Assembly: GCA_964492935.1 (NCBI GenBank)
Contig: CAZBLF010000006.1
Coordinates: 1 to 43,649, forward strand
Reading direction: 5' to 3'
Length of the DNA: 43,649 nucleotides
Origin: an uncultured Methanosarcinales archaeon
GTDB taxonomy: Archaea > Nanobdellota > Nanobdellia > Woesearchaeales > JACPBV01
Of this stretch, positions 6,767-14,246 are shown one piece after another. Position numbers and translations under genes: made by a program. The first letter of the stretch is position 1. Each line of letters starts with the position of its first letter. Under the pieces are notes generated by a model, which did no database searches, was not told the origin of the DNA, and worked only from the letters and a program-made list of their open reading frames with translations.

Positions 6767-7390
6767 GTGAAAAAAGAAATCATTCCAGCAATCATAGTAA
6801 AGAACCAAAAAGACCTAGACGTAGCTCTCGTCAAGGCAAAATTCGCAAAACGAATCCAAATTGACATCATGGACAACAAGTTCGTAAAAAACTCCTCCCT
6901 CCAGTTCAATTTCAAGCTCAAAACAAAAGCAAAAGTTGAAGCACACTTAATGGTACAACATCCATTACAATGGATAAAAAACCATGCCTCCAAAGTAGAC
7001 GTCATCCTCTTCCAGCACGAATCTAAAGATAACAACGAAGAAGTAATCAAGGCCATCAAAGCAGCAAAAAAAACACCCGGAATAGTAATCAATCCAGAAA
7101 CAGAGATACAAGAAATCGAACCAATCCTAAGCAAAGTAAAGGAAGTCCTAGTAATGACCGTCCATCCCGGATTCTATGGCAGCAAGTTCGTCCCAGAAAC
7201 ACTCAAAAAAGTAACCCAACTCAGAAAATTAAAACCCGCTCTAAACATCGAAGTCGACGGCGGAATAACAAACAAAACAATAGCAAGAGCAAGCAAAGCA
7301 GGAGCTAATTTATTTGTCTCCGGCTCTTTCATCATGAAAAGCCCAGAACCCGAAAAGGCTGCGAAAGAACTTGAGAAACTAATCCATTAA
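6767..7390 (+). CDS. rpe: Ribulose-phosphate 3-epimerase
   Basis: IQIDIMD, EAHLMV, VMTVHPGFYG, IEVDGGI and FVSGS motifs. Confidence 0.93.
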   Translation: MKKEIIPAIIVKNQKDLDVALVKAKFAKRIQIDIMDNKFVKNSSLQFNFKLKTKAKVEAHLMVQHPLQWIKNHASKVDVILFQHESKDNNEEVIKAIKAAKKTPGIVINPETEIQEIEPILSKVKEVLVMTVHPGFYGSKFVPETLKKVTQLRKLKPALNIEVDGGITNKTIARASKAGANLFVSGSFIMKSPEPEKAAKELEKLIH

Positions 7391-8604
7391 CTCCCTCTAC
7401 CTCTCAACTCATTACGAATTTCTTGAGGGGTAATCCCCTTCTTCGCCATCAGCAACAAGAGAAAGTACTGCAAATCAGCGATCTCCCAGACTAAATTATC
7501 TCGAGAGGTATAAGAAACCACTTCCTGAGTCTCCTCACTAATTTTCGCCATGATCTCGTTCTCACTAGCCGAAAGAGCAGAAGTATATGAACCCGCGAGC
7601 GGATTTTCAACTCTATCTCGCACCACTGAATACAAATCATCCAGGCAGTATTCTTTATCTCCAAAGCAAGAATACGAAGCAGTGTGGCAAGCAACATTCG
7701 TCTGCCGAACCGTAAACAAGAGGGAATCTCGATCACAATCATAACGTACGTTCAATAATTCCTGGAAATTTCCAGACGTCTCACCCTTCGTCCAAAGCTT
7801 GTTACGAGACCTACTGAAATACGTAGCCCTCCGAGAGGAGAAGGTCTTAAGAAGAGATGCAGAAGAAGAAAAAGCAAACATCAGCACCCTACCAGTATCA
7901 TCCTGAACAATAGTAGGGATCAACCCTTCCGAAAAATCTAAAAGCGAAACAAACGTTGCAGACAAAGAAATCTTTTCTGTATAGAGTGCCATCCCTATCT
8001 GCGAATTACATCCCATCTCCTCCAGGCGCAACACATCCTCCTGCGTGGTAACCCCTCCAGCAACCGTCAATGTATTGGCAGTACTCTTTCGAAGTTGATT
8101 AATCCTCTCCCAATCAACCCCCTGCATCATTCCCTCTTTATCTACATCAGTGAACAAAAATTCAGAGCAATACGGCTCGAGTAATCTCATCCTTTCCTCA
8201 ACCGCAACTCGAGTATCATTCCGCCACCCCTCATCGACCACACTTCCCTTAACAGCATCCACAGCAACAATCACCTTATCCCTAGGGAGCTGCTTCAAGA
8301 AGGAAACCTCTGCCCGAGTACCAATAATGATTTTCGAAGCTCCAGCCCTCAGCAGTTCCTTAGCTCGACCAACACTGCGAATGCCTCCACCTACCCTACA
8401 CGATGCAATGCTACAAAGCTCCTTTACCAGAGCAAGGTTGTCACCTCTACCCAGAGCAGCATCCAAATCAATCACAGCAATCTCGCCATACATCCGAAAT
8501 TCCTCAGCTAACGCTATAACATCCGAGCGTTCCAAAACTTTCTTCTTACCTTGAACGAGTTGAACCGCCTTCCCCTCCATGAGGTCAATACTAGGAATCA
8601 TCAT
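7387..8604 (-). CDS. hisAIE: Trifunctional HisA-HisI-HisE fusion
   Basis: N-terminal [14 protein letters not shown] and VGGGIR (HisA); KGETSGN...DCDRD...ACHT...SCF (HisI); SYT...KISEE...EIADL (HisE). Confidence 0.9.
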
Positions 8605-9356
8605 TGTCGCACCTCCATACTATTACCAATAAGGGCCTTTTTGACATCACCAATCGTACATTCGCCAGTGTGAAACAGAGAGGCAGCCAGAGCAGCATCT
8701 GCCTTTCCAAAAACAAAAACTCCACTAAAACTCTCGAAGGAACCAGCCCCACCTGAAGCAATCACCGGAATACCTACTGCAGTAGCCACCTGCATCGTCA
8801 AATAACTGTCAAATCCCTGACGAGTACCATCTCGGTCCATAGAGGTTAATAATATCTCACCAGCACCAAGTTTCTCAGCTTTCCGCGCCCACGCAACGAC
8901 ATCCTTGCCGGTATTCTCTCGACCACCCTTGACAAAAACCTCCCACCCTACCCCTTTCTGCTTTGCATCAATAGCAACAACAATACACTGCGAACCAAAA
9001 AGAGCAGCAGCCTCACTAATCAAAGATGGATTTTTCACCGCAGCCGTATTCAGTGAAACCTTATCAGCACCAGCCTGTAACAAAGCCCGAATATCCGAAA
9101 TACTAGATATACCTCCCCCGACCGTAAAAGGGATGAACACCTCCCGAGCAACCTTTCGAACAACATCAATCATCGTTTTCCGACCCTCACACGATGCAGT
9201 AATATCCAAAAGAACAAGTTCATCGGCACCCTGCTCGTTATACTTCTTAGCAAGTGCCACCGGATCTCCAGCATCCCGCAAGCTAAAAAAGTTTAGACCT
9301 TTCACAACCTTTCCATCCTTCACATCTAGACAAGGAATGATTCTTTTAGCTAACAT
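8601..9356 (-). CDS. hisF: Imidazole glycerol phosphate synthase cyclase subunit
   Basis: [39 protein letters not shown]. Confidence 0.97.
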
Positions 9357-9931
9357 AGCAACCACCGTTCCAAAAACTGTAGTCCATAGTCACCAGACTT
9401 TTCTGGGTGGAATTGAACTGCAGTAATACTGCCAGATTCAACCGTACACGCAAACGAACAACCATACTCCGAAGTTGCAGTAACAATAGCTGGATCAGCA
9501 GGAACCACATAATATGAGTTAGCAAAATAACCGTATCCCTTCGCCAGCAAGCTGGGAGGGCAAGGCAATATGGTATTCCATCCCATCTGAGGAACCTTTC
9601 CAAGATTGAATTTCTGGACAGAACCCTTCAACACCCCGAGCCCAGAAACTCCTGGACTCTCCTCACTTGTTTCAAACAACGCCTGCATTCCAAGGCAGAT
9701 GCCAAGAAAGGGCTTACCTGAGGATAAATAATCCTTCAATACCTCAATCAACCCCTTTTCACGCAAAGCCTCCATCATCGCTCCGAATGCACCTACGCCA
9801 GGTAATACAACCCTATCTGCGGCACCTATATTCGATGCAGAGGAAGTGATGACCGATTCCACTCCAAGACAATCTAGTGCATTCTTCACACTTTGCACAT
9901 TCCCTATCCCGCAGTCTATTATCGCTATCAT
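9350..9931 (-). CDS. hisH: Imidazole glycerol phosphate synthase glutaminase subunit
   Basis: [32 protein letters not shown]. The ATG overlaps the hisB stop (ATGA). Confidence 0.96.
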
Positions 9932-10527
9932 CGTAAGATCCCCTTTACTCCCGCAATCGCATTCTTCCTCCAAGGAGTATCCCGAAAGCAATCCCTGATG
10001 GCCTCTCCAAGCGCTCTGAACACGGTTTCCCAGATGTGGTGCGGATCATAGCCCTCCAACACCTTAACCTGAATCGTAGCCTGCATTCCCTGTGCCAACC
10101 CTTCAATGAAATTCTGCAAATCACATCCCTTCATATCCTCGACATTCCGAACAAAGGCTTTCTTACCCTTCAAGTCCACGAACGAGTTACTACGACCCTC
10201 AAAACTCACACAAACGACAGATAAAGCTTCATCAAGAGCAGCAACGCTATATCCACTTCCTCGAACCCCCTTGGGAAGTTTCTGTTCAAAAAGTCGAGCA
10301 AGGGCCCTACCTAAAACTAACCCACTATCTTCAGCAATAACGTGCTCAAGTTTGAAGTTAGTCATAGCAACAGCTACATCCATGTTCATGCAAGCTCTCC
10401 ACGCAATAGTTTCAATCATGTGGTTCAAAAATTGCAGTCCCGTATCTATCTTGAACTCTCTCCGCGGCAATTCATCTACCTGAACCACCACCTCTGATTC
10501 CCTTGTTGTTCTTTTTTCTTCTATCAT
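9928..10527 (-). CDS. hisB: Imidazoleglycerol-phosphate dehydratase (divergent)
   Basis: RTTRES, TGLQFLNHM, LDEAL and DPHHIWE motifs; operon context. Confidence 0.9.
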   Translation of the reverse strand: MIEEKRTTRESEVVVQVDELPRREFKIDTGLQFLNHMIETIAWRACMNMDVAVAMTNFKLEHVIAEDSGLVLGRALARLFEQKLPKGVRGSGYSVAALDEALSVVCVSFEGRSNSFVDLKGKKAFVRNVEDMKGCDLQNFIEGLAQGMQATIQVKVLEGYDPHHIWETVFRALGEAIRDCFRDTPWRKNAIAGVKGILR

Positions 10528-11834
10528 TTCAACCTCCGATCGACAGATGCCCTGTGAGCATCCAGTCCCTCTACATCCGCTATCCTATTCACAATCGGTT
10601 GCAACTTCCGCAACCCCATCTTACTCACATCCGAATACTGAACACGCTTCATAAATGTCCAAACTCCAACTGCTGAAGTCCTTTTAGCCCACCCACTCGC
10701 GGGCAGGATGTGATTAACTCCAGACGCATAGTCTCCTAAGGCAACAGGATTATACATCCCCAAAAAAACACTGCCAGCATTTGTTATCTGTTCTAAGACG
10801 AGACGTGGATTCTCAGTAAGAATCTCCAGGTGCTCAGGAGCATACGAGTTAGTGAACTCAACAGCCTCATCCAGCGTATCAACGAGCAGGATACCGCAAT
10901 AATTTTTCAAAGCACTTTGAAGATACTCTTTCCGGGAAAGCAGCTCAAACTGTTTCTTAATCTCCTCTTGAGTAAGGCGAGCAAGCTTCCCTGAAGTCGT
11001 CACCAGCACCGCAGCAGAATCAGGTCCGTGTTCTGCCCGAGCCAGGATGTCGGCAGCACAATACTCAGCTTTTTTCTGAAGATCAACACCTTTAGATAAA
11101 CCCCCATCAGCAATAATGACGGCCTCACTCGGACCTGCAGGCATATCAATAGCAACCCGCTCCTGACAGAGAATCTTTGCAGCAGTCACCCACGGACTTC
11201 CCGGTCCAGCAATCAGTTCAACGGGTTTAACTGTCGAAGTTCCATATGCAAGCGCAGCAATCGCCTGAGCACCGCTCATACGATAGATCTCCGTAACGCC
11301 ACACTCAGCTAACGCAACAAGCGTCTCATACTGATTTCCTTTTGGAGAGATTGCAGCAACAATTCTACCACTACCTGCCAGCACCGCAGGAACTGCTAGT
11401 ATTTGTGCAACCGTGGGAAACGGATTCTTCCCACCAGGAATATACAGTCCAACCGCCTCTATCGCAGTCCATTTCTCTCCAACAACAATGCCCTCGCCAG
11501 TAGTACCTTCCCAATCCTGGATGGCAGATCGCTGCCTCTCGTGGAACCGCTGCGCATACCGAATCTGCTCCCTGATTGCAGAAAGAACCTCTGGAAGAAT
11601 ATTTTCGTACGCTTTCTCAATCTCTTGCGCATCAACACACAGCATACTCTTCTGAAAAGCTGCATCATCAAATTTCTGTGCATAGCGAACCAAAGCTGAA
11701 TCTCCCTCAGCCCTTACCTCTTGAATGATAGCTCTAACCGCTACCTTAACCTCCTCCAACTCATTCTGCGACCGCAGCAACAGACGTCGAAATGCCCGAC
11801 TCTTCTTATCCCTCATCGAATACCTTCTTATCAT
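10524..11834 (-). CDS. hisD: Histidinol dehydrogenase
   Basis: VGLYIPGG, GAQAIAALAYGT, DMPAGPSE, AEH, APEHL, GDYASGVNHILP, EGLDAH. Confidence 0.95.
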   Translation of the reverse strand: MIRRYSMRDKKSRAFRRLLLRSQNELEEVKVAVRAIIQEVRAEGDSALVRYAQKFDDAAFQKSMLCVDAQEIEKAYENILPEVLSAIREQIRYAQRFHERQRSAIQDWEGTTGEGIVVGEKWTAIEAVGLYIPGGKNPFPTVAQILAVPAVLAGSGRIVAAISPKGNQYETLVALAECGVTEIYRMSGAQAIAALAYGTSTVKPVELIAGPGSPWVTAAKILCQERVAIDMPAGPSEAVIIADGGLSKGVDLQKKAEYCAADILARAEHGPDSAAVLVTTSGKLARLTQEEIKKQFELLSRKEYLQSALKNYCGILLVDTLDEAVEFTNSYAPEHLEILTENPRLVLEQITNAGSVFLGMYNPVALGDYASGVNHILPASGWAKRTSAVGVWTFMKRVQYSDVSKMGLRKLQPIVNRIADVEGLDAHRASVDRRLK

Positions 11835-13079
11835 TTTATTACCTCCAAAAAATCCAGAATTTGGTTTACATCCTCAAGCACCTGTTCGGCACCCTCCAAC
11901 TTAAACGTGAAAGTAGAACTTTTGACCCCTACAAAGCGAACATTGGCAGCTTTCGCCATCATCGCATCAGCAGGCAAATCTCCAACATAGACTATCTCTT
12001 GCAATCCCAGCTTTTTCCGAGCGAGAGTCAATCCATCAGCACAGGGCTTCTGCCTATCCTCAGAAAGATCATCCCGAGTAATAAGGACCTCAAAATAGTC
12101 AAGCAATTTATATTTTTTTAAGGTAGAAACTGCCTCATCTCGTGGTCTACCCGTAACAATTCCCAATGAAGCTCTAGAAGAGAGACTTTGCAAAGTACCT
12201 TCATTAACAAGCAAACGCTCTTTATTCCAGATCTCCCGAGAGAGATAACGCTGAAACACTTCCACTATTTCCTCAAAATCCACCTCAACACCCTCTCTCC
12301 GCAGCAGTTCCCTACAACAATCCCACTCGTTATTGAATCCACTTTGCTTCACGGCAGCAAACTCCAGTAATGCAACAGGACGCTTCAGAAATTGACCAAC
12401 GGTTTTGCAAGATGCTACTCCATACGATTCGCTACTATCAACCAACACCCCATCCATATCAAAAACAATTGATTGCCGAACGGGAGAACCAAGAATAACA
12501 AAATCACTTTGAGCGATGAGGTCATACACTTTCAATCCACATTGTTCTAGCGTTTTTCCTGTATAGACGATGTCGATGACCAAATCAGCAATGCCTTCCT
12601 TACAACTTACCTCCACGCACCCGTTGACATAAATTTTCTTGAAAGTATACCCATTCTGCTCAAGAAAGTTAAGATACGATTTTCCAAGATTTTTATATTT
12701 AGCCGCAATACAAACAGTAAGGCGTTTCGGAAGATCTTCAAGATTCCTATCTTTAGGACCTAATAAACAAAGAGCAGGCTTACCATATTTTGCCCGAGCA
12801 TCATTCCAAGGAATCCTAGCAAGAATGGTAGGGGGAACAGTACTCTGTTGAGCGCAATATTCATCATACAAATCCTCTCCCGTTAACCCAATGACCTTCT
12901 TTCCCTTACCCTGAAACTCTTCTACCCAAAACGGGACATCCTCCCCTCTCACCTCAAGTATTTTTGAGGAGTCAACATTCTGAAGACTAGGAAGTGCTTT
13001 TTCCCTATATTCTTGCAGTCCGCCATTCTTCGGAACGACAATGAATACAATCCTTAGCGTTAACTAACGAGTCTACCAT
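11831..13079 (-). CDS. hisG: Short-form ATP phosphoribosyltransferase fused to a HAD phosphatase; predicted to need a +1 frameshift at 13043 (about 415 aa)
   Basis: Frame is open from 13063 to 11831 with IVVPKNG, VRGEDVP, GLTGEDL, NGCVEV, DIVYTGKTL, then FDMDGVLVD...KP...VGD (HAD). No in-frame ATG/GTG/TTG precedes the conserved N-terminal strand. The RBS-preceded ATG at 13079 is in another frame. Confidence 0.85.
13005..13079 (-). promoter_or_regulatory. Leader ORF 2 (MVDSLVNAKDCIHCRSEEWRTARI*) with a single His codon
   Basis: GGAGGTGA RBS (13091-13084) 4 nt before the ATG; TGT ATT CAT T at 13049-13040. Confidence 0.75.
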
Positions 13080-13105
13080 AAACTCACCTCCAAGGGAACA
13101 GAAAG

Positions 13106-13177
13106 GGCGGTAGCCGAGAATCGAACTCGGACCGCAAGGCCCACAACCTTGTATTCTACCAGTAAACTACTACCGCC
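13106..13177 (-). tRNA. tRNA-His(GTG), intronless, G-1 encoded
   Basis: G GCGGTAG TA GTTT ACTGGTA GAAT A CAAGG TTGTGGG CCTTG CGGT CCGAG TTCGATT CTCGG CTACCGC C, with G-1:C73. Confidence 0.95.
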
Positions 13178-13244
13178 ATAAGAAATATCAACAAAAGAAC
13201 TCAAACAAGAACAAAAACTTAAACTACTAAAATTAGACTCACAA

Positions 13245-13307
13245 CTACCAAGAATGAATACAACCAGCGTCGGTGACGCCTTTGTCCTCAAGTAATACGG
13301 TGTTCAT
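13245..13307 (-). promoter_or_regulatory. Leader ORF 1 (MNTVLLEDKGVTDAGCIHSW*), probably leaderless, with a single His codon
   Basis: ATG lies 30 nt from the start of a TATA box; TGT ATT CAT T at 13262-13253. Confidence 0.7.
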
Positions 13308-13325
13308 AAAAAAGAAGAAGTGCAA

Positions 13326-13349
13326 CTTTATATTTAAGTCTTTTCATTC
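13326..13349 (-). promoter_or_regulatory. BRE/TATA promoter for the leader-tRNA-His-his operon
   Basis: Minus strand GAATGAAAAGAC-TTAAATATAAAG: a purine-rich BRE followed by a TATA box. Confidence 0.65.
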
Positions 13350-13370
13350 ATCAAGAGGAAGTAGCAAAAA

Positions 13371-14246
13371 TCATTCAACAATAGCCTTTATCTCAGAACC
13401 AAACATTTCTGAAGCACGCTTAACATACTCCTCAATATTATCAGTAAAGTACGGCGGATGCTGTTTCTGAATATTACCAATAACGAAATAACCAATTGCC
13501 ATCAGGGCAGCATACGAAGCATCAGCAGGCAACGGAATGTCCAAGCGATGCTTCCCAAACTGTGAATTCGAATCACCAAACGAAATAAATAATTCTTTGT
13601 CATTAGGAACAACCGTTTTAGCATGTTTTGTCTGATCCACAGTAAAAACACGCCCATTCACAACGGACCCAAACAACTCATCGAATTTAGTCAGCAACAT
13701 CTCTCGCATCGCATCAAAACGAGAAGGAACAATCAAATAGAACGCAGAATATGAAGCAAAGTCCTTAGGTATCAAAGGAACAACCTCTTTTTTGATAAAC
13801 TCCAAAATCGCAGCAGGATCTTCTTTTGTTTTTCCCAAAATCATGCTCATATACGTCGAAGTATTGTAGGTATACGGCTCAGCCTGTTTCGGAAACACAA
13901 ACGTCTCATGCACGAGCGTTTTAGCAGGCGCATCTGTATTACACGTCAACAGCCGAGTCTCAATTTTCAATCGCTTCAATTCCTTAGCAATAATCGGAGC
14001 ATGTTTAGCACCCGATGCCGAAATCAAGATAGCACCATCCACAATATCCAAATTATCCCGATACGTACCCTCATCCGCAAACACCGCATCAGAACCCTCC
14101 ATAATGATTCTACCCGTAGCAGCAGCATTACCTGAACCAACAACAAGAGGACGATCATAGGAACCAAGATGCAATTCAGGAATACCTTCAGCAATAAACA
14201 GCTGCAATGCAGATAGTACACATTCATCCAGACCAATAATCTTCAT
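13371..14246 (-). CDS. SIS-domain (sugar isomerase-like) protein
   Basis: VVGSGNAAATG and ILISASGAK resemble SIS phosphosugar-binding loops; substrate cannot be determined. Confidence 0.55.
   Translation of the reverse strand: MKIIGLDECVLSALQLFIAEGIPELHLGSYDRPLVVGSGNAAATGRIIMEGSDAVFADEGTYRDNLDIVDGAILISASGAKHAPIIAKELKRLKIETRLLTCNTDAPAKTLVHETFVFPKQAEPYTYNTSTYMSMILGKTKEDPAAILEFIKKEVVPLIPKDFASYSAFYLIVPSRFDAMREMLLTKFDELFGSVVNGRVFTVDQTKHAKTVVPNDKELFISFGDSNSQFGKHRLDIPLPADASYAALMAIGYFVIGNIQKQHPPYFTDNIEEYVKRASEMFGSEIKAIVE

Follow-up and report, generated by a model that had tools for sequence, protein, structure and literature searches.

The his operon described here lies on the minus strand of the window, a 43,649-nucleotide (nt) stretch of DNA from contig CAZBLF010000006.1 of assembly GCA_964492935.1; all coordinates at the locus refer to that strand. 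Upstream of its first gene, hisG, there follow in order a TATA-like element, a short leader open reading frame (ORF1), a T-rich spacer, a tRNA-His(GTG) gene, a Shine–Dalgarno (SD) sequence and a second short open reading frame (ORF2), a series that a preliminary description of the sequence had listed and that we find complete. Here, we analyse this region together with its counterparts in related genomes. The arrangement probably acts as a switch that activates histidine synthesis in times of histidine shortage; ribosomes waiting at a histidine codon would move forward by one base and so enter the frame of hisG.

At the 5′ end of the locus, an archaeal promoter of the BRE/TATA type (B recognition element and TATA box) can be read at 13327..13343, with TTAAATATAAA at 13337-13327; its function as a promoter is putative. 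The 5′ end of TTAAATATAAA lies 30 nt ahead of the ORF1 ATG, and the predicted transcript start falls at or next to the ORF1 AUG, which would make the mRNA leaderless. ORF1 (13245..13307) consists of 20 codons, MNTVLLEDKGVTDAGCIHSW, followed by TAG, and its sole His codon stands two codons ahead of the stop. The T-rich spacer (13180..13233) contains runs of five T (13217-13213) and four T (13196-13193) and is a possible archaeal termination or polarity zone. It is followed by the tRNA-His(GTG) gene (13105..13176), found by ARAGORN and matched by the Rfam tRNA family with 58.9 bits, for which G-1 is encoded at 13177. The SD sequence GGAGGTGA (13083..13090) is complementary to the 3′ end of the 16S rRNA of the same genome, ..GGATCACCTCCT, and is separated by a 3-nt spacer from the ATG of ORF2 at 13079. 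ORF2 (13005..13079) comprises 24 codons, MVDSLVNAKDCIHCRSEEWRTARI, followed by TAG, and constitutes the zero frame of entry into hisG. The hisG gene itself (11831..13042) occupies 403 codons of the +1 frame and encodes a short-form HisG (Pfam PF01634, E = 9.5e-20, 71.6 bits against a curated cut-off of 25.5) fused to a HAD phosphatase domain (PF13419, HAD_2, 1.2e-20, 74.8 bits).

ORF1 and ORF2 each hold exactly one His codon, and both place it in the same context. An 11-nt repeat, TTGTATTCATT, is present without mismatch at 13263-13253 and 13050-13040 and is read in the same frame in both copies, TGT-ATT-CAT, as had been noted before. Within the first copy lies candidate shift site 1 (13253..13259; ATT 13259-13257, CAT 13256-13254, T 13253), and candidate shift site 2 (13040..13046; ATT 13046-13044, CAT 13043-13041, T 13040) forms the conserved junction with hisG. 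The preliminary description had claimed that skipping the C of either CAT leads into a long, His-free +1 frame, and this holds at both sites. From site 1, the +1 frame runs for 61 codons without His (13073..13255), crosses the T-rich spacer and the tRNA-His gene, and ends at a TAG (13075-13073) that overlaps the ORF2 start in the sequence ATGGTAG. At site 2, the +1 codon ATT (13042-13040) encodes the first conserved residue of HisG, and the frame continues through the 403-residue HisG–HAD protein.

The frame relationship between ORF2 and hisG leaves little room for a conventional start. The hisG frame is open only from 13063, downstream of a TAG at 13066, and no ATG, GTG or TTG occurs within it in the window ahead of a GTG at 12952; that codon lies too far into the gene, as a start there would drop the conserved IVVPKNGGL strand. 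The frame set by the ATG at 13079 is offset from that of hisG by one base. Omitting the C of the CAT (13043) joins MVDSLVNAKDCI to IVVPKNGG.. (..KDCI|IVVPKNGG..), followed by the whole of HisG–HAD, and a full-length protein made from the start of ORF2 therefore requires a +1 change of frame. The N-terminus of HisG would then be encoded by the first 12 codons of ORF2.

Because the two frames differ by a single extra base, a sequencing or assembly indel, or a hisG that is a decaying pseudogene, might account for the arrangement. However, both sites are spanned by contigs assembled from four runs, each from a separate study, and these contigs show neither a substitution nor an indel, which rejects an assembly error and indicates that the extra base is real; the indel errors considered as an objection in the preliminary description are thus absent from independent assemblies. 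None of the 24 runs listed as containing the stretch is an RNA run. The site contains no homopolymer, the downstream frame is intact and shows codon-periodic constraint, and the same junction recurs at 54 loci from many families and studies (see below). Judged from these sequences, an error or a pseudogene cannot persist across HisG proteins that are just 45–63% identical, and we regard this explanation as having a negligible chance of being right.

To place the window among its relatives, we first looked for the HisG domain in 41 related genomes. A second search covered 401 genomes from the same order, 35 of which gave a match at an expectation value (E) of up to 1e-10; in the genome_contigs collection 95 stretches matched, and 80 were kept. 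Removal of 17 duplicates left 94 distinct loci, 93 of them with enough upstream sequence, labelled Woesearchaeota, Iainarchaeum, Aenigmatarchaeota, Nanoarchaeota, Pacearchaeota and others, including eight bacterial loci (Eremiobacterota, Acidiferrales). The main comparison set comprises the 66 archaeal loci with at least 44% HisG identity; the loci are interrelated, and counts over them are not independent trials. In 54 of the 66, an NTT-CAY motif whose +1 frame is the hisG frame stands exactly at the first conserved HisG residue, and in none of the eight bacterial loci. A wider site rule flags 57 of the 66, one of them spuriously (L071, with a site 466 nt upstream); the automatic calls at L071, L046 and L123 were discounted. 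Leader ORFs and an out-of-frame hisG had been expected in his operons of DPANN archaea and are there. In-frame relatives, which had been put forward as potential counter-evidence, also exist, with an in-frame start and no site in 9 of the 66 loci, but these loci retain the leader upstream, and the N-termini that they encode agree with the product expected from a shift between the two frames. The recurrence across relatives is far beyond chance on these comparisons, whereas the window by itself would be weak evidence for more than chance.

What is conserved at the junction is a codon pair in the zero frame. Across 53 distinct contexts, T at −2, T at −1, C at 0 and A at +1 are invariant. The P-site codon is ATT in 35, CTT in 15, GTT in two and TTT in one, the base after NTT is always C, such that the slipped codon would be UUC in 53 of 53, and the A-site His codon is CAT in 47 and CAC in six. 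Since these four bases are fixed and the third base of the His codon is T or C, the conserved signature is any NUU codon followed by a His codon. The same letters in the hisG frame would read Phe-Ile. If TTC were there merely as a Phe codon of HisG, codon usage of the window's own genome would predict it in 44% of cases, yet it is invariant; at the six CAC sites Ile becomes Thr in the hisG frame and His is kept in the zero frame; and in-frame relatives have I, I, T or Y at the Phe-equivalent position, never F.

Coding sequence follows the zero frame up to the junction and the +1 frame beyond it. On the downstream side, column entropy follows the hisG frame, with third positions at 1.73 versus 1.11 and 0.83. 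On the upstream side, no codon period appears in column entropy at −21 to −4 (1.17, 1.22, 1.13); N-terminal lengths vary here, and conservation in the 12 nt preceding the site is at the nucleotide level. The coding nature of the upstream zero frame rests instead on the in-frame relatives. The in-frame HisG of L003 begins METPALAKDCI-IVVPNN, that of L027 begins MINTQDYI-IVVPKN and that of L022 contains ..DCKDCT-VILPKN, each corresponding to the zero-frame peptide joined to the +1 frame; the AKDCI codons of the window and L003 show five synonymous differences. A GGAGG-type SD sequence stands 5–9 nt ahead of the zero-frame ATG in most shifted loci.

A HisG tree rooted with bacteria places the shifted state in 60 of 84 archaeal rows, including the deepest branches, with in-frame loci scattered among them; at least 13 changes of state are needed, of which at least five are forced by well-supported branches.

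The main rival explanation dispenses with shifting and would have HisG start in its own frame, with ORF1 and ORF2 acting as upstream open reading frames that sense histidine by stalling alone. Candidate starts are AUU at 13042 or 13051 in the window and, in most relatives, GTG or TTG codons 9–21 nt upstream of the junction. Of the 57 flagged loci, 40 have such a GTG or TTG in the hisG frame. Position −9 is G without exception and position −10 is T in 45 of 53 contexts, giving NTG at −11 to −9 of the +1 frame. L101, L066 and L041 start at an ATG 12–15 nt (4–5 residues) before the conserved strand and so show that HisG proteins with so short an N-terminus occur in nature, L080 and L085 have a hisG ATG that overlaps the His codon (C-ATG) with GGTGAT 7 nt upstream, and in the window an AAGGA stands 8 nt before the ATT at 13042, where a weak AUU start is possible. 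Against own-frame initiation, no ATG, GTG or TTG is available in the window or in L029, L032, L033, L039, L056, L058, L072, L076, L100 and L108, and L072 has a TAG two codons before residue 1. The strong SD sequence always serves the zero-frame ATG, at a distance of some 30 nt from the GTG. That GTG would be hidden beneath a ribosome stalled at CAU, and starvation would then shut hisG off, which is the wrong logic. The six CAC sites give ACY as the +1 codon, which is not a start, and TTC is invariant although in-frame relatives lack Phe there. The motif is also found in upstream leaders (with mostly CTG or TTG at the corresponding position), where no hisG start is needed. We therefore consider own-frame initiation unlikely, though worth keeping in sight.

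The loci L080 and L085, which come from metagenome-assembled genomes labelled Methanofastidiosia and Halobacteria, read TTT-C-ATG-G, and shift and initiation would give the same frame there; their SD-like word could be a true ribosome-binding site.

The second site-bearing element, the upstream leader, is also recurrent. Under a strict rule (an ATG start, a length of no more than 45 codons, presence of the motif, and a stop no further than six codons from His), a leader is present in 43 of the 66 loci. Homologous leaders end in ..(G/D)(C/Y)(I/L)H plus zero to three codons and a stop, and share the NTT-CAY motif of site 1, flanked by G at −9 and by T at −7 and −6. The ATG of 28 of the 43 leaders has a TATA-like word beginning 29–31 nt ahead of it, a spacing that points to leaderless transcripts.

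Past the His codon of these 43 leaders, the median open length is three codons in the zero frame, eight in the +2 frame and 33 in the +1 frame. In 29 of the 43 the hisG entry is reached by the +1 frame, and in 3 of the 43 by the +2 frame, over leader-to-entry spacers of 54 to 402 nt. Of the 29, sixteen continue without interruption into the proximal site's zero frame; the other 13 stop no more than 25 nt from the entry ATG, in many cases overlapping with it, as in ATGGTAG (the window), ATGA, TGATG and ATGTTAA. Shuffling of individual spacers gives probabilities between 0.0000 and 0.44 for an open +1 frame. In six loci (L028, L053, L054, L056, L060 and L062) no ATG opens the proximal zero frame, and therefore the only entry is from the leader +1 frame. 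L032 has three sites in series, and the second frames of L032, L043 and L044 lack any start codon.

A distinct group of loci (L033-L036, L077, L079, L084, L086, L088, L092 and L098) has an MKRV-type leader, MKRV(D/G)(C/Y)(I/L)HC(E/W)*. Its +1 frame extends for about 38 codons and ends in ..(I/M/F)HH(H/R)C-stop, with two to four His codons, just before T-runs and an intron-bearing tRNA-His, which resembles a shifting stage placed ahead of a classical stalling one. Side features of the leader region include a recurrent TTT-CAT-GGG-TAG at the end of the leader +1 frame in L029, L043, L044 and L048, followed in these loci by a short GC-rich inverted repeat (for example, GGTAG..CTACC). The L003 genome belongs to the window's own family, yet its HisG nests in the MKRV-type group, far from that of the window, which suggests transfer of the his operon between DPANN lineages.

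It could be that only the hisG junction shifts, and that ORF1 is a stalling leader acting on termination in the spacer or on tRNA processing, with its +1 frame left untranslated. The shuffle probability of the window's open +1 frame after ORF1 is 0.18 and not significant, the MKRV-type second frames end in His runs ahead of T-runs as classical attenuators do, and 14 of the 43 leader +1 frames end elsewhere than at hisG, mostly at the His run before the tRNA, so that stage 1 does not always deliver ribosomes to hisG. The prevalence of +1 over +2 paths to the entry across spacers of such different lengths, the endings that overlap the entry ATG, and the six proximal frames that only a leader +1 frame could feed all argue for a translated path, and the window leader has no significant predicted hairpins. 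Confinement of shifting to the junction is accordingly rather improbable in our estimate.

The embedded tRNA-His has a regular cloverleaf with a GUG anticodon, G-1 opposite C73 and a normal 7-nt anticodon loop (TTGTGGG). It is one of two tRNA-His genes in its genome; the other copy (C1:95486-95572) has a 15-nt intron and shares 56 of 72 bases. Only one of the three frames is open through the embedded gene, and it is the frame of the +1 path. The +1 path crosses a tRNA-His in 17 loci (the window and 16 others), and the open frame is always the one used. The preliminary description had made the tRNA part of the device; the gene is confirmed in the window, but it is an optional component, as many loci have a leader and sites without it.

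A second tRNA-His gene within the locus raises the possibility of quadruplet decoding, in which tRNA-His, perhaps the embedded copy, would read CAUU or CAUC to give ..DCI-H-VVPKN.., a product of the same length as the slip product. The anticodon loop is, however, of normal size, many loci have sites and no tRNA, in-frame relatives have Ile, Val or Thr rather than His at that position, and more His-tRNA would yield more HisG, again the wrong logic. We judge quadruplet decoding very improbable.

Several further tRNA features were seen in passing. Embedded tRNA-His genes often have an intron of 15–54 nt after the anticodon (L003, L026, L032, L033, L035, L036, L052, L076-L079, L086, L087, L090 and L107), and ARAGORN sometimes mislabels them as Tyr, Ser or Cys; in L003, L026, L032, L052, L078 and L107 the +1 frame is open through the intron too. 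In intron mode, ARAGORN reports in the window's own genome (C1-C57) one tRNA each with the anticodons CTA ('Pyl'), TCA ('SeC') and TTA ('Stop') and a tRNA-Leu(AAG) with a 1316-nt 'intron', which may be either artefacts of this permissive setting or genuine suppressor-like tRNAs. ARAGORN detected no tRNA-Ile(GAU) in this genome, which is 85% complete.

The product of the shifted path is devoid of the amino acid whose synthesis it serves. None of the 403 residues of HisG–HAD is His, an amino acid that averages 2.0% across the genome and is missing from just 5 of its 440 long ORFs; the HisG domain is His-free in 55 of 59 site-bearing loci. Because both the 61-codon path and HisG–HAD are His-free, a shifted ribosome would meet no His codon until hisD. 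Further along the operon, hisD contains five His codons, hisB four, and hisH, hisF and hisA-IE one each.

No significant hairpin is predicted in 13310-13177 (z −0.77) or 13104-12990 (z −0.81), where folds are no better than those of shuffled sequences, and a classical hairpin attenuator was rejected on these grounds. In 12800-13500, tRNA is the sole Rfam family at E up to 1, with two other rows far below their gathering scores.

Base pairing with the 16S rRNA offers a different potential stimulator. Pairing of the 16S tail with the 12 nt that precede the P-site codon averages −6.45 kcal/mol, against −2.92 kcal/mol for 7138 background 12-mers, and duplexes at or below −6 kcal/mol occur in 65% of 43 contexts versus 9.6% of the background; the same bases could be a GTG start. 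The conserved G at −9, T at −7, T or C at −6 and purine at −8 fit pairing with the 16S 3′ end. At −8, A and G can both pair with U, and at −6, T and C can both pair with G, and the encoded residues vary correspondingly (D/G and C/R). The GCTGGTTGT context, which is like that of site 1, gives about −2.7 kcal/mol with the 16S tail. Anti-SD pairing as a stimulator near the site is a lead only.

Together, these observations lead us to propose a His-tRNA-sensing serial +1 frameshift attenuator of the his operon with two NUU-CAU sites, a reading to which we give somewhat better than even credence; the shift itself and its dependence on histidine are deduced from sequence. Transcription would begin at the ORF1 AUG and yield a leaderless mRNA. 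With His-tRNA plentiful, the CAU in ORF1 would be read, followed by two more codons and the stop, leaving the spacer and tRNA-His untranslated; the tRNA could then fold and be cut out, and hisG would receive no ribosome. With His-tRNA scarce, the A site would stand empty at CAU, the peptidyl-tRNA (Ile, anticodon GAU) would slip from AUU to UUC, and AUU would be read next. The shifted ribosome would translate 61 His-free codons through the spacer and the tRNA up to the UAG overlapping the ORF2 AUG, where it could restart beside the strong SD sequence. ORF2 would repeat the test 12 codons on: reading of CAU would lead to a 24-residue dead end, and a slip at AUU-CAU-U would lead to MVDSLVNAKDCI-IVVPKNGG.., His-free HisG–HAD and translation of the operon. 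Two such gates in series would give a steep response. The T-rich spacer, if untranslated, might cause termination or polarity, and tRNA maturation might be the alternative fate of the transcript. The trigger by His-tRNA shortage, the restart at ORF2 and the effects on termination and tRNA processing are, like the shift, postulated here.

Archaeal NNY codons are read by G34 tRNAs, and a slip would be favoured because the wobble G-U pair of G34 on NUU becomes G-C on UUC, with the middle A-U pair kept. Re-pairing at the first position on UUC is full for Phe (UUU), G-U for Leu (CUU) and absent for Ile (AUU). The preliminary description had proposed that tRNA-Ile on AUU re-pairs on UUC with two pairs; that part stands, but AUU is not the defining codon, as any NUU occurs, and CUU and UUU re-pair better.

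Besides the in-frame start codons discussed above, several points weigh against a serial shift. The relatedness of the loci overstates the independence of the evidence; tRNA(Ile) with anticodon GAU, on which the window would depend, re-pairs on UUC at two of three positions; 23 of the 66 loci have no leader under the strict rule; the window's own open +1 frame after ORF1 and the leader frames that miss hisG, described above, do not favour stage 1; and the window sites pair weakly with the anti-SD sequence (−3.8 kcal/mol at site 2), unlike those of many relatives. Taken as a whole, the comparative tests supported the interpretation offered in the preliminary description, in which a shortage of His-tRNA would trigger two successive +1 shifts.

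A broader proposal extends this model to the DPANN archaea as a cascade of one to three His-codon-gated +1 shifts, passing in 17 loci through a functional tRNA-His gene, with tRNA maturation and hisG translation as alternative fates of the transcript. Such a cascade would be ancestral to the archaeal HisG clade, repeatedly lost by one-base fusions, and the first natural 'hungry' sense-codon sensor of an amino acid. We hold this extended form to be evenly poised between right and wrong.

The remainder of the operon was identified by Pfam matches. It extends over 7390..11834 with hisD, hisB, hisH, hisF and hisA fused to hisI-hisE, and the start of hisD is overlapped by the stop of hisG. We saw no hisC in the window's operon; in L002, a hisC–HAD fusion comes after hisG. 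Directly upstream of the his promoter, a 291-residue ORF (13371-14246) has no Pfam match at E up to 0.001.

If the model holds, several consequences follow. It would place an amino-acid sensor in the ribosomal A site of archaea, with neither a regulatory protein nor a riboswitch. The serial design and the passage through a tRNA gene would provide a simple, testable model of steep translational switches, and the site is short enough for transfer into reporters. For annotation, hisG in such genomes will be called truncated, split or a pseudogene, and histidine prototrophy in DPANN is therefore likely to be under-counted. DPANN archaea are usually regarded as auxotrophic symbionts. The host of the window is a small marine archaeon, whose genome occurs in marine and vent samples.

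Since the 1980s, starvation experiments in the laboratory have shown that ribosomes can shift frame at hungry codons, and the his locus, if read correctly, would be a natural case of a hungry-codon shift that yields a starvation-specific product. A 2016 review of recoding states that no natural hungry-codon frameshift giving starvation-specific products was known (PMC5009743). The accessible part of the GeneTack survey makes no mention of hisG (PMC3711429), and a 2026 preprint on Nanobdellota, in the part available, mentions frameshifts solely as a matter of assembly quality. In the full-text literature, from whose coverage subscription journals are largely absent, we found no description of such a system and none of leader-peptide control in archaea.

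Among known systems, the closest in logic is perhaps that of prfB, whose +1 site consists of an SD-like AGGGGG, UAU and CUU-UGA-C. Like prfB, the his locus has a short first frame and a long +1 frame, a negative feedback that would act through the product, a P-site codon of the NUU type (often CUU), whose tRNA could pair again after moving by one base, and a slow A-site codon whose decoder would be sensed. In many relatives, a word complementary to the 16S 3′ end stands just upstream and may correspond to the SD-like element of prfB, and some his leaders have UAU-CUU before the slow codon. It is nevertheless not a member of the prfB family: the slow codon is a sense His codon read by a tRNA, rather than UGA read by RF2, and the product is a biosynthetic enzyme, not the decoder. 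The his system also has two or three sites in series and an archaeal host, the window sites show weak anti-SD pairing, and the part of the 16S tail that would pair (AUCAC) is unlike that in prfB.

The enterobacterial his leader, hisL (RF00514), has a run of seven His codons. As at the archaeal locus, the his transcript opens with a short leader ORF, and in the model proposed here translation of the archaeal leader would likewise register how much His-tRNA is available and determine whether hisG is expressed. The archaeal ORFs, however, have one His codon each instead of a run, no predicted terminator or antiterminator hairpins and no RF00514 match (E up to 1), and the proposed read-out is a change of reading frame, not RNA refolding; some relatives, those of the MKRV type, do end their second frame in a short His run. 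T-boxes likewise sense the charging of a specific tRNA and control amino-acid genes, but 12800-13500 contains no RF00230 match (E up to 1), and sensing at the his locus would take place in the ribosomal A site. The distinction from the enteric poly-His hairpin attenuator and from T-boxes that had been drawn in the preliminary description is thus borne out by the single His codon and by the lack of predicted hairpins and of matches to these two Rfam models.

Frameshifting inside the leader gene of an amino-acid biosynthetic operon has a precedent in Escherichia coli pheL, where 15% +1 frameshifting at UUC-CCC-UGA was found to be incidental, with no effect on pheA (PMC3082878). That shift occurs at a stop codon, not at a codon for the regulated amino acid, and by analogy it cautions that a leader may be prone to shifting without the shift being put to use. 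The Ty1 and ABP140 site CUU-AGG-C lets the P-site tRNA slip by +1 while a scarce aminoacyl-tRNA is awaited, with no downstream structure (PMC5009743). The his sites would resemble it in a +1 slip on CUU during an A-site wait and in needing no downstream structure. In Ty1, the scarcity is that of a constitutively rare tRNA and the product ratio is fixed, whereas at the his locus scarcity would vary with supply and act as a switch. On these comparisons, the his system would work like prfB with a sense codon, or like the Ty1 shift made conditional, and is a member of neither, nor of hisL.

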